This document shows positions 17,251-21,142 of a stretch of DNA of 64,000 bases, in pieces. Under the pieces are notes generated by a model, which was not told where the DNA came from, searched no databases, and saw nothing but the letters and a program-made list of their open reading frames with translations. Position 1 is the stretch's first letter; each line of letters opens with the position of its first letter. Made by a program: the position numbers and the translations under genes. The stretch comes from a virus, in IMG/VR virus record IMGVR_UViG_3300032136_000002, positions 38,281 to 102,280 of that record; one strand, given 5' to 3'.

Positions 17251-18648
17251 TTGGCGGTGCACAACGAGCTGCGGCTAATCAGCAAGGTCATTGAGACCGG
17301 AGACGTACGTCCCCTGATTCGTTCCCGCATGACACCATCGTTGTTCCGCAATCCTGAAGCCCGCGCCATGTTCGAGGAGCTGTGGCGCTACTACCACAAC
17401 CAACGCCACTACGGCGAGACCCCCAAGCGTGGGTGGATGGAGTCGAAGTTTCAGAGCTTTACCCTCTTCCCTGGCATCGACGAGTCGGTCACAGAGCTGG
17501 TCGAGTACGTTCGGCGTGACACGCTCGCCCAGCGCATCTACGAAGTGCTCACCTCAACCTATGAGCACATCCACACCGACCCCCATGAAGCCCTCAACCT
17601 GCTCTACCAGCAGGCCGGCGAGCTCAAATCCATCAGTGCCCACAAGGGCTCGAACTTCACGCTACACGAGGTGACTGAAGAAATCTGGGAGCGATACCTA
17701 GAAAAAGAACGTTTACGCCTATCTGGAGGAGTCAGTGGCATCCCATGGCCTTGGGCGCCACTGAACAAAGTAACTGGAGGACTCGAGAATGAACAGCTCA
17801 TCGTCCTTTACGGTCCTCCAAAGTCAATGAAAACCATGTTCGCCGTTCAACTCGCAGTCCATGCCTACCTGTGGAACAACCAGCGGGTCCTTCTCTACTC
17901 CGCTGAGATGCCACGAAAAGATATGCAGGACCGCATGGCGGCGTGCATCGCTGAGGTGGACTACGGTCGCATTGACCTTGGCTACCTCACCGTCGACGAA
18001 AAGGCGCGCTACAAGGATGCTCTCGACTTCATCCGCGACGAGGCCCTGGCCAACCCGTCCGGCCGAGGACCTATGCTCCACTACGCTTCGGACCACGAAG
18101 CAGACGTGCGAGGCAACGTAGCCCTCATCCGGTCCCTGGCCGAAGAGCTCGAAGCCGACCTGGTCATCGTCGACTCCTTCTATCGCCTGGCTGACCGGTC
18201 AGGCCGAGTGGACCTCGACTGGAAGGTCGTCGGCAACGTCGCTCAGGATCTTAAAGCGCTGGCTAAGCACTTGGGCATTCCCGTCCTCGGCATCACTCAA
18301 GCCAACGAGGGCAAGCAGCTGGCCTTCTCAAAGGTTATCAGCATGGAGACTGACCTGGCCATGATGGTGGAGATGGCCTACGAGTGTTCAGAGTACACGG
18401 ACCTCAACCTCACCTTCACCGCGAGCCGCAAGATCAAACAGCCCGGATTTCAACTTCGAGTCCAACCCTACACCCGGTTCTCCTTCCAAGGGTGGTTGGA
18501 GTTCAAGGACGCAGAGTCAAACTACGAGGTTGACCAGGGCACCAAAGCAACCAACTTCGGCAACAAGCGGGCACCCCGTCCCAAGGGCCCGCCTCCCATC
18601 AACAACGACGCCGCGCTCATTCACGACCTGGTAACCCGAGCACACTGA
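17251..18648 (+). CDS. dnaB: DnaB-like replicative helicase
   Basis: LNKVTGGL; Walker A GPPKSMKT; YSAEM; VIVDS; LKALAKHLGIPVLGITQAN. Confidence 0.9.
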   Translation: MAVHNELRLISKVIETGDVRPLIRSRMTPSLFRNPEARAMFEELWRYYHNQRHYGETPKRGWMESKFQSFTLFPGIDESVTELVEYVRRDTLAQRIYEVLTSTYEHIHTDPHEALNLLYQQAGELKSISAHKGSNFTLHEVTEEIWERYLEKERLRLSGGVSGIPWPWAPLNKVTGGLENEQLIVLYGPPKSMKTMFAVQLAVHAYLWNNQRVLLYSAEMPRKDMQDRMAACIAEVDYGRIDLGYLTVDEKARYKDALDFIRDEALANPSGRGPMLHYASDHEADVRGNVALIRSLAEELEADLVIVDSFYRLADRSGRVDLDWKVVGNVAQDLKALAKHLGIPVLGITQANEGKQLAFSKVISMETDLAMMVEMAYECSEYTDLNLTFTASRKIKQPGFQLRVQPYTRFSFQGWLEFKDAESNYEVDQGTKATNFGNKRAPRPKGPPPINNDAALIHDLVTRAH

Positions 18649-18826
18649 ATTGACGTCCTCCCTCGCCTAAAGGCGAGGGATTCTTGAAAGGAAGCAACTT
18701 TGGTTATTAGTCACAACCTATCAAGATGGTTCACGTTTCACCGAGACGCGCAGCGTCGAGGGGAAGCCTCGCCGATGTCTTACCGTCTCTCCGCGTGCTG
18801 CTGGGGCCCGCCCGGCCCCCAGCAGC
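18630..18826 (-). ncRNA. TnpB-type omega-RNA (reRNA) scaffold plus flank-derived guide
   Basis: ACGCGGAGAGACGGTAAGAC...CGTCTCGGTGAAACGTGAA core with nested stems, right-end hairpin, TCAA, then guide TTCAGTGTGCTCGGGTTACC. Confidence 0.7.
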
Positions 18827-18918
18827 GTTCTATCACGAGCGAAGCGCTTTACAACCCAAAAGGAAGGCGCGCTTTCCTCCCCCGGCTAAAGCCGGGGGTC
18901 TCCAGCGCGCAAAATTAG
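18650..18918 (-). mobile_element. Non-autonomous miniature IS200/IS605 element (269 bp, no tnpA or tnpB)
   Basis: Minus strand: left end GAGA-CCCCCGGC-TTTA-GCCGGGGG; right end GAAT-CCCTCGCC-TTTA-GGCGAGGG-AGGACG-TCAA; target TCAT directly 5' of the left end; no target duplication. Confidence 0.88.
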
Positions 18919-19932
18919 ATGAGCGCAGTAGTTGAAACTCTCACCCCCCTGGTGGGCTCTTTCCGCAAGAGCGGGACTGACTGGGTCACCCGGTCGTGTC
19001 CCTTCCACAGCGACCGCACACCCTCATTCGCGGTCAACACGCGGAACGGCTGCTGGGTTTGTCACAGCTGTGGGCAGAAAGGGACGCTGCCCCGGCTGCT
19101 GAAGCTCCTCGGCCTCCCCCGCGAACAAGTCGACCGCATCATGACTCCTCTGCGAGAGCAACTTGAGGAGTACGTGCGGAGACAACAATTTGCGCTCGAC
19201 CACCGGTTTGAGCGAGACCCCTTCCGGGCCGACTACCCCTTGCCTGAGCACCTCTTGGGCCTCTACGACTTCTGCCCAACGCTCCTGCTCGAAAAGGGGT
19301 TCGACCCCGCGGTCCTGCAGTCCCTCGACATCGGATTTGACCGAGGACGCAACCGCATCACCTTCCCCATCAGAGACCTCTACGGGAACCTGGCCGGCCT
19401 CTCAGGCCGCACCACGGTCGGGGCCTATCCAAGGTACAAGGTCTACACCGCCGGCTTCGAGGCAAGCACCGGCTGGGTAAACAGCGACTTCGGGGCCAAC
19501 TTCGATGAGGAGTACCCCGACTACACCATCGACAAGAGCCGCTTTTTGTGGAACGGCCACGAGGCCCTCCCCATCGCAATGGACTCCCCTTCAGAAGAGC
19601 CTGTTATCGTTGTGGAAGGCTACAAGGCGTGTTTGTGGTTGATTCAAGCCGGGTTTCCCTTGACCGTAGCCCTAATGGGCGCCTCGCTGAGCACATTCCA
19701 AGCTGACCTCTTACGCCGCTTGGCCAACCCCATCGTACTGTTCCTCGACAACAATTCCGCGGGTCACGCGGGTACAAGAAGAGCAGTCGATAGTCTTAGC
19801 CGTTCCAACACCGTAAAATCCGTGACATACCCTGACTGGGCAATTTCATCTACGCAACCTGACGACTTTGAGACTGACGTACTTAACCACTTGATACTCA
19901 ACGCAAAGCCTGAGTACTGGAAAGGAAACTGA
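18919..19932 (+). CDS. dnaG: DNA primase (CHC2 Zn finger + TOPRIM)
   Basis: CPFHSDRTPSF...CHSCG; RITFPIRD; VVEGY; FLDNN. Confidence 0.92.
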   Translation: MSAVVETLTPLVGSFRKSGTDWVTRSCPFHSDRTPSFAVNTRNGCWVCHSCGQKGTLPRLLKLLGLPREQVDRIMTPLREQLEEYVRRQQFALDHRFERDPFRADYPLPEHLLGLYDFCPTLLLEKGFDPAVLQSLDIGFDRGRNRITFPIRDLYGNLAGLSGRTTVGAYPRYKVYTAGFEASTGWVNSDFGANFDEEYPDYTIDKSRFLWNGHEALPIAMDSPSEEPVIVVEGYKACLWLIQAGFPLTVALMGASLSTFQADLLRRLANPIVLFLDNNSAGHAGTRRAVDSLSRSNTVKSVTYPDWAISSTQPDDFETDVLNHLILNAKPEYWKGN

Positions 19933-19933
19933 A

Positions 19934-21142
19934 ATGCCTGAGACACGCTACATCACCAAGCCTCGAAGGTTCCATCAAGGCCTCGGCCATCAAATGCGGA
20001 ATGCCGGCAGCGCCTTCGGCAGCTTCTCTGACCGGTGGCAACCACCGGACGCTGGTGAAGCTCCTCCAGCCTTCATCACCCTCATCAACGGGAACTACGA
20101 ACAGGAGGTTGAGCTAGCTGACACCGGAGAAAAAGGAGTCATCACTACTCACTCTTGGACCTACTTCCGCCACTGGATGCCCTTCGCCCACAGGTACGAA
20201 ACTTGCTCTGCCGGGCTGAAACTCTACACCAGCGATACCGGAGCTTGGGTATTCCAGGTAGGAAGTGGGCCCTGTGAGCTATGCAACGCTGACGGAGTGA
20301 ACAACCCTCAGCTCATTCAAGCTGCCACCATCGGTGTATGGGGGTTGCAGCATGAGGTGAAGACAAAAGTCCCTGGCCAAGACCGGGAACGAACGAGCTG
20401 GGAGCTTTGCGCCAAGCGGGGCTGTCCCCATTGCGACGCAGGGAATACCCCTGTCCCCGTCCGACGCGCCTGGTGGCCAGCACGATCGAAGGATATGGCC
20501 GCCCTGGGCATCTACGAAGCGGAAAACTTGGGGCTCAAGTGCAGTGCCGGTTGCGACGAGGACATGCACACGGCAGGCAGTCAATGCGGAAACTGTCCGC
20601 ATATTTTCATCGCACTCGAAGAGACGAGCATGACTGAAGCAGAGTTTCAGAGCCACTTGTCTGCCGCTACCACTTGTCCGGACTGCAACTCTTACGAGTA
20701 CCCTCAGCCAATTCGAGAATGCCCCACTTGCGGGAACACCGAATCCCCTGAGATCTATGACGTGCGTATCAAACTCGTTATGAAGAAGGAGTCAACCACT
20801 AATCGTCGAGGTAGGCAGCAAAATCGTTACGAACTTCAGCTTCTAGGTGACCGCAAGATCACTGCAGAGCAGCAAGCTCAGCTCGCGGAAATAGCTGTTC
20901 CTTACGATTTCGACCAGATTGTTGGTCCATCTTCTCTTGACGAGCAGCGGGCATTGCTCAACGAACCTACTCGAGGAGGGCAAGGGCAACCGAGCCAACA
21001 GCTCCCCGCCTCCTCCCAGAACCAGTACGTTGACTATAACCGCGCTGGTGGGCAACATCCCGCTGCGCCTCCGACGGCCCCGCCGCTTGCAGGGCGACCT
21101 GACTTCTTCCGGAAGCCCAACCTGACCAGCGGCCAACGATAA
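19934..21142 (+). CDS. Cys-rich protein, putative single-stranded DNA-binding protein
   Basis: Several CxxC pairs; HW...ETC...CELC pattern recalls gp32-like SSBs; lies between primase and polymerase. Confidence 0.5.
   Translation: MPETRYITKPRRFHQGLGHQMRNAGSAFGSFSDRWQPPDAGEAPPAFITLINGNYEQEVELADTGEKGVITTHSWTYFRHWMPFAHRYETCSAGLKLYTSDTGAWVFQVGSGPCELCNADGVNNPQLIQAATIGVWGLQHEVKTKVPGQDRERTSWELCAKRGCPHCDAGNTPVPVRRAWWPARSKDMAALGIYEAENLGLKCSAGCDEDMHTAGSQCGNCPHIFIALEETSMTEAEFQSHLSAATTCPDCNSYEYPQPIRECPTCGNTESPEIYDVRIKLVMKKESTTNRRGRQQNRYELQLLGDRKITAEQQAQLAEIAVPYDFDQIVGPSSLDEQRALLNEPTRGGQGQPSQQLPASSQNQYVDYNRAGGQHPAAPPTAPPLAGRPDFFRKPNLTSGQR

Follow-up and report, generated by a model that had tools for sequence, protein, structure and literature searches.

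What occupies the gap of about 270 bases between the helicase and primase genes of a compact phage genome? The question is raised by a window of 64,000 nucleotides, i.e., the whole stretch of DNA analysed, which covers bases 38281-102280 of the 102,280-bp IMG/VR record IMGVR_UViG_3300032136_000002. The record is rated about 56% complete. A first-pass annotation, made from the letters alone, had read the gap as a mini-element of the IS200/IS605 family which encodes no protein, expresses a guide RNA for a TnpB nuclease and is directed against the empty version of its own insertion site. All sequence features named in that annotation are located where it had placed them. Their coordinates, together with those of features found subsequently, are collected in Table 1.

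An exceptional gap in the replication module

The element at 18650-18918 (269 bp) makes up the entire space between the two genes. Among 17 distantly related viral contigs, 16 have a spacing of 0-15 nt or an overlap between the end of the helicase gene and the start of the primase gene. Thus, the two genes are tightly packed in relatives and the 270-bp gap is the exception. The alignments of primase relatives begin at residues 1-4, and a gene for a family A DNA polymerase is located further downstream of the primase. Excision of 18650-18918 in silico yields TGA-A-ATG, the very arrangement of the next junction at 19930-19936; the restored spacing which the first-pass annotation had pointed out is borne out by the sequence.

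A blastn search of GenBank phages with the element as a query gave no match. The DNA polymerase reaches a best identity of 30% when compared with phages, a value at which no host can be inferred. Of note, in four distant relatives (L013, L022, L023, L024) about 1.2 kb separates two blocks of the DnaB-like helicase match, which suggests an intein, an intron or a homing-endonuclease insertion in their helicase genes.

Table 1. Features in and around the helicase-primase gap (positions of the window)
Feature	Position	Strand	Basis
DnaB-like replicative helicase gene	17251..18648	+	Pfam DnaB_C 1.8e-19; PHROG 19, 4e-48
Predicted 20-nt guide, taken from the sequence which adjoins the right end on its 3' side; antisense to the 3' end of the helicase gene	18630..18649	-	Right-end boundary common to three copies
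Weak matches to Rfam HgcC (RF00062) at both hairpins	18640-18720 and 18862-18942	-	20.6 and 18.5 bits; gathering score 50
OmegaRNA scaffold, terminated precisely by the cleavage motif TCAA	18650..18798	-	Covariance model R1
Right-end subterminal hairpin, 8 bp, loop TTTA, 4-nt guide GAAT at 5' foot (18683-18680)	18660..18683	-	IS608 geometry; ssDNA fold
14-bp G+C-rich hairpin directly 5' of the scaffold	18797..18826	-	Inverted repeat, RNA fold; partly conserved in the diverged L004 copy
Candidate promoter TTGTAA-N16-TAGAAC, TG upstream of second hexamer	18827..18854	-	Sequence (18854-18849, 18832-18827)
Left end: 16 nt, GAGA, 8-bp hairpin (18898-18879) within a 7-bp outer stem	18855..18918	-	Sequence; ssDNA fold; 77% identity over 66 nt to left end of the L029 tnpB element
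TCAT, target and TAM motif, complementary to the primase ATGA	18919..18922	-	Left flank common to copies (TCAT, TCAT, CCAT)
DnaG-like primase gene, ATG abutting the left end of the element	18919..19932	+	Pfam Zn_ribbon_DnaG and Toprim

The ends and the target

In IS608 the left cleavage takes place about 19-20 nt from the hairpin foot, TCAA is 10 nt from the right foot, and 4-nt guides are positioned at the 5' feet (PMC3201880). The minus strand of the gap is built accordingly. As characteristic of non-autonomous IS200/IS605 elements (PATEs), it has subterminal imperfect palindromes at both ends on one strand (18898-18879 and 18679-18660), with GAGA and GAAT as guides at the feet of the hairpins and a spacing like that of IS608. 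The left end reads TCAT (18922-18919), 16 nt, GAGA (18902-18899) and an 8-bp hairpin with the loop TTTA; as single-stranded DNA it folds with -20.1 kcal/mol (z -4.25). At the right end the hairpin is followed by 10 nt ending in TCAA (18653-18650), again with a pronounced single-stranded fold (z -3.2). GAAT pairs with TCAA 10 nt from the foot and GAGA with TCAT 20 nt from the foot. Guide and cleavage site reportedly pair position by position, a rule which is said to stem from Barabas and colleagues (2008).

With IS608 of Helicobacter pylori the element thus shares the subterminal hairpins, the 4-nt guides at the 5' feet, the TCAA at 10 nt and the left site at 20 nt, as well as insertion 3' of a tetranucleotide without target duplication. 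It differs in its target (TCAT versus TTAC), in its left guide (GAGA versus AAAG), and because neither tnpA nor tnpB is present inside. The pairing of GAGA with TCAT and of GAAT with TCAA, as proposed at the outset, fits this geometry, and TCAT, the complement of the primase ATGA, is indeed placed exactly at the left boundary.

When sibling elements from other viral contigs are examined the same tetranucleotide emerges. The left flank is TCAT in seven of eight siblings whose 4-nt left guide is GAGA, GATA or GAAA. In L029, L039, L041, L050, L053 and L110 it precedes the 4-nt left guide by 12-15 nt, a distance of 16-19 nt when counted from the hairpin foot. Three copies with different flanks are present in L050. 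These sibling flanks support a dual role in which TCAT would be target and TAM alike.

Both hairpins are picked up weakly by the Rfam family HgcC. The terminal hairpin and its following tail resemble the 3' end of the HgcC consensus, and conversely the 3' end of this archaeal RNA family resembles the terminal hairpin plus tail of omegaRNAs. Membership was rejected since the scores remain below the gathering score of 50; all other Rfam matches were noise.

Three copies at start codons

Two further copies with about 99% identity are present in the record in opposite orientation, at C1:13127-13395 (copy B) and C1:155-423 (copy C). The region common to the copies is bounded abruptly by the TCAA end on one side and by the left end on the other. 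Their right flanks are unrelated, and no target is duplicated. The left flanks of the three copies are TCAT, TCAT and, in copy C, CCAT. Common ends, differing flanks, a conserved target and the absence of target duplication are what is expected of a multi-copy PATE. Each flank is the complement of the ATG which opens the downstream reading frame, a clear gene in two of the three cases. The combination of a TCAT target with a TCAA right end renders insertion at stop/start overlaps nearly silent. The only open reading frames in the element, of 72 and 69 aa, run antisense to the RNA and have no Pfam match at E values up to 1. With IS608-type ends, three copies about 99% identical and no coding gene, the description as a protein-less IS200/IS605 mini-element is confirmed.

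Two observations concern the individual copies. At copy B (flanks L002:1770-2666 and 1178-1504) the TGA stop of the upstream gene now resides within the terminal TTGA of the element; without the element the upstream gene would end in an ATGA stop/start overlap. Copy C (scaffold at L003:275-423) carries a cluster of three substitutions by which two pairs in a conserved stem of the omegaRNA are broken, and the changed bases are the exact complement of the neighbouring hairpin arm, as if templated. At least one copy, namely copy C with its lowered covariance score of 69.6 bits, may be decaying, to judge from these substitutions.

The distribution of the copies bears on an altogether different reading, a domesticated regulatory spacer. 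It would uncouple translation of helicase and primase, pause transcription at its three hairpins, or supply an antisense RNA against the helicase 3' end. The location between genes which are translationally coupled in relatives, the strength of the three hairpins and the fact that a minus-strand transcript would be antisense to the helicase agree with such a role. Yet the same element occupies two unrelated gene junctions and contains nothing specific to replication genes. No hairpin followed by a run of T is present in it; a single terminator-like site was detected in 18400-19100, beyond the limits of the element, and this number is what chance would give. We regard a regulatory spacer as very improbable.

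An omegaRNA scaffold derived from a tnpB gene

The element had been claimed to contain an omegaRNA-like scaffold on the minus strand, and a covariance-model search was proposed as a check. We built such a model (R1) from an alignment (A1) of 27 TnpB-linked omegaRNA regions, all of them from other viral contigs and none from this genome. The consensus structure of A1 has 17 pairs, 11 of which show compensatory changes. R1 matches the minus strand from 18798 to 18650 over its full length (model positions 1-135 of 135) with 86.5 bits and an E value of 1.7e-20, a score which falls among those of the sequences used for training (71.9-108 bits). The scaffold was thereby verified. The model also recognizes copy B (86.5 bits), copy C (69.6 bits), the 3' end of the tnpB gene in the record (71 bits) and a fourth locus at C1:21375-21522 (51.5 bits). 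When 18826-18630 is folded as RNA, the z value is -4.25. The 14-bp hairpin which precedes the scaffold may form a stable 5' end of the transcript.

The right-end motif, AATCCC-hairpin-GGGAGGAYGTCAA, is present in more than 116 viral contigs. A TnpB-like match ends at most 600 nt upstream of it in 83 of 121 viral matches, and 18 of 88 right ends in a sample of viral contigs have no long open reading frame. The decisive relative is contig L029, in which TTCAT, the left end, a strong sigma-70 promoter, a tnpB open reading frame and the omegaRNA follow each other on one strand. A related full-length insertion sequence, the existence of which was the point of another proposed check, was therefore found in the form of a tnpB-carrying relative. 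The 3' end of L029 tnpB and the region downstream are 64% identical over 150 nt to the scaffold of the mini-element, and the left ends are 77% identical over 66 nt, which indicates descent of the scaffold from the 3' end of a tnpB gene. Because similarity is evident at both ends, the mini-element can be described as a deletion derivative in which the left end and the promoter region were fused to the omegaRNA.

Other elements of this kind exist. L037, L049 (at its second right end), L107, L124 and L089 each contain a protein-less element in which a left-end hairpin precedes an omegaRNA scaffold terminated by the same right-end motif. Those of L037 and L049 contain a promoter-like TATAAT.

Searches with shorter sequence signatures yielded little. 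A first pattern for the long-type scaffold found nothing in bacterial genomes; a relaxed version returned 18 bacterial loci (Streptomyces, Bifidobacterium and assorted MAGs), which gave no clue to the host. A 17-mer from the core of the element had a single match among viral contigs (L028), without further similarity.

An ordinary intergenic region with hairpins and motifs thrown up by chance is refuted by the three near-identical copies, by the E value of the covariance match and by the tight junctions in relatives; its probability is negligible. One can confidently conclude that the gap is, almost certainly, an omegaRNA-bearing PATE.

Promoter, guide and empty site

The candidate promoter with its extended TG, as noted in the first-pass annotation, exists, and what speaks for it is its location at the position of the strong TTGACT-N17-TACAAT promoter of L029. 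Nevertheless, a sigma-70 consensus scan of 18400-19100 returned no site, i.e., the candidate TTGTAA-N16-TAGAAC fails.

The predicted guide is complementary to the last 17 nt plus the stop codon of the helicase. The guide had been said to border TCAT only in the uninterrupted junction. This is true by construction of the 20 nt which follow the right end. None of the guides of the three copies matches elsewhere in the 102-kb record at up to three mismatches; self-targeting of other phage sites by these guides was dismissed on that ground.

The search for an empty allele had been proposed as a check. The exact 19-mer of the predicted junction is not contained in the viral contigs, a search of little power as the closest IMG/VR primase is only 45% identical and near-identical records may be missing from the collection. 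Three matches of the 19-mer in metagenomes are chance hits lacking any flank similarity and any helicase or primase homology. Thus, the check turned up no empty allele among viral or metagenome contigs.

TnpA and TnpB in trans

Mobilization by a TnpA acting in trans had been suggested. The 102-kb record, about 56% complete, has no match to Y1 or serine transposases (PF01797, PF00239), and thus no TnpA gene was found in it.

The situation is more intricate for TnpB. The record has one tnpB gene, at C1:4177-5403, which encodes 409 aa from its likely ATG (region L005:1353-2616, corresponding to C1:4143-5406). The RuvC residues D-E-D and the zinc-finger cysteines of this resident TnpB align with those of the best-matching solved structure, a designed TnpB-type nuclease, and ISDra2 TnpB structures match at E values of about 1e-55. 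Its right end carries the family motif and an omegaRNA. A left-end hairpin like that of its right end was not found within 590 nt upstream, and judged by its sequence the gene looks immobilised. The guide belonging to this gene matches nowhere else in the record.

The omegaRNA of the resident tnpB is of a short type without the GUAAGAC-plus-hairpin insertion, like those of L049, L067, L082 and L131, the TnpBs of which are 46-50% identical to it. The scaffold of the mini-element is of the long type and has this insertion, as do elements whose TnpBs are 22-35% identical to the resident protein. The left flanks of the relatives of the resident TnpB are TTAT (L049, two copies) and, by the guide rule, TGAT (L120, L131), not TCAT; these relatives probably read a TAM other than TCAT. 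Because of the short-type omegaRNA lineage and the TGAT/TTAT flanks of its relatives, it is unlikely that the resident TnpB is the partner of the element. As to the proposal of a TnpB supplied in trans, the only TnpB encoded in the record has aligned D-E-D residues but belongs to another lineage with a short-type omegaRNA and TGAT/TTAT-flanked relatives. A TnpB reading TCAT may be encoded in the uncovered 44% of the genome or in the host.

A fourth omegaRNA locus was observed at L004:1538-1742 (C1:21375-21579). It is diverged, with 81% core identity and 51.5 bits, and has no left end. Two right-end tails 39 nt apart would specify two guides. Each guide has a match with two mismatches within about 330 nt, adjoining CCAT or TCAT, and both are mismatched at guide position 4. 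The downstream 409-aa gene has its first six codons duplicated in a synonymously recoded form, and it is to this duplication that the second guide corresponds.

These data frame the main rival to RNA-guided cutting, that of an inert hitch-hiker. It holds that the PATE is spread only by TnpA in trans, that no compatible TnpB is present and that neither RNA-guided cutting nor homing occurs; the scaffold would survive since the copies are young and because it overlaps with the right end needed by TnpA. The other lineage of the resident TnpB and the different TAM which its relatives probably read are as expected from such a passenger, as are the weak promoter which failed the sigma-70 scan and the stem-breaking substitutions of copy C. 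Further, at about 99% identity between copies, conservation of the scaffold cannot be read as selection. Against this stand four long-type omegaRNA loci in a single compact phage genome. The fourth locus, in spite of its divergence, is still recognized by the model, and its guides retain two-mismatch matches beside YCAT, which suggests a longer period of use. In addition, 44% of the genome and the entire host are outside the data. On balance, we consider an inert hitch-hiker somewhat unlikely.

Discussion

The reading we favour, with moderate confidence as an explanation of the whole, is an omegaRNA-bearing PATE with TnpA-type insertion and TnpB-dependent cutting of empty sites. Its identity, boundaries, copy number and scaffold are established by the data; transcription, TnpB loading, cleavage and homing are steps which we infer. 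The element is a non-autonomous deletion derivative of a tnpB-carrying insertion sequence; of its parent it retained the left end, the promoter region and, up to the right end, the omegaRNA gene. It would have entered by single-strand 'peel and paste' of the TnpA type, 3' of TCAT on the minus strand. At this point the element falls precisely into the space after the helicase stop and before the primase ATG, and both genes stay intact. A minus-strand transcript would give rise to an RNA of about 170-200 nt, the last 16-20 nt or so of which would derive from the helicase 3' end. The element, when in place, separates TCAT from the guide-matching sequence by 269 bp, whereas in its absence the two adjoin; only the empty site would be targeted. 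A TnpB which reads TCAT and binds the scaffold in the infected cell would then cut the genomes of element-free siblings. Repair of the break by recombination with an element-bearing genome would result in homing, and failure of repair in loss of the rival genome. Homing or exclusion of sibling phages is plausible, though unproven. That the omegaRNA is currently used by some TnpB has, in our estimate, slightly less than an even chance.

How does this compare with known systems? PATEs often encode omegaRNAs which need a TnpB in trans (Meers et al., 2023, PMC10055086). Like the PATE-like elements of Geobacillus stearothermophilus (PMC10055086), the phage element has both ends, no protein gene and an omegaRNA which depends on a TnpB from another locus; the right-end flank determines the guide, and mobilization would be by TnpA in trans. 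Unlike those, it resides in a phage genome, its copies are positioned at start codons, and neither a TnpA nor a TnpB of matching lineage is found in 102 kb. Mobilised standalone omegaRNAs reportedly work in trans when paired with compatible effectors (Altae-Tran et al., 2021, as summarised in PMC10691335). As far as that summary describes them, the OMEGA standalone omegaRNAs resemble the present case in having neither effector nor transposase while an effector-containing locus is present in the genome. They differ in that compatibility with the resident effector is doubtful here, as the scaffold subclass is different and probably also the TAM. OmegaRNA-bearing PATEs and trans-acting standalone omegaRNAs are already published, and nothing was found which sets the element apart as a new kind.

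A further comparison is with the free-standing homing endonuclease genes of T-even phages and with 'transposon non-restorative homing' (PMC13565253). In each case a selfish insert is located between conserved, essential phage genes and could cut the insert-free allele of a co-infecting relative, to be copied in by repair. The difference is that recognition here is predicted to proceed via an RNA guide plus TAM and that the nuclease is not encoded in the insert. Homing into co-infecting phages is listed as a theoretical mode in a 2026 review (PMC13565253).

One may go further and view the three mobile mini-elements and the immobilised two-guide locus as a joint armament, used with the left-end-less resident TnpB as a weapon or homing drive against sibling phages. 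We hold this to be quite unlikely. If true, such a distributed set of guides would represent a natural intermediate stage on the way from a one-guide omegaRNA to a multi-guide, CRISPR-like array.

For annotation, this means that a mobile element, and not a regulatory region, accounts for the odd gap of 270 bp in the replication module. The pairing of a TCAT target with a TCAA end allows entry at stop/start junctions free of damage, which may explain why such elements are tolerated in compact phage genomes. Should the element be active, it would act as the RNA-guided equivalent of the T-even free-standing homing endonucleases. Flanked by two essential replication genes, it could then skew inheritance in mixed infections, an idea which for phages has so far been mostly theoretical (PMC13565253).
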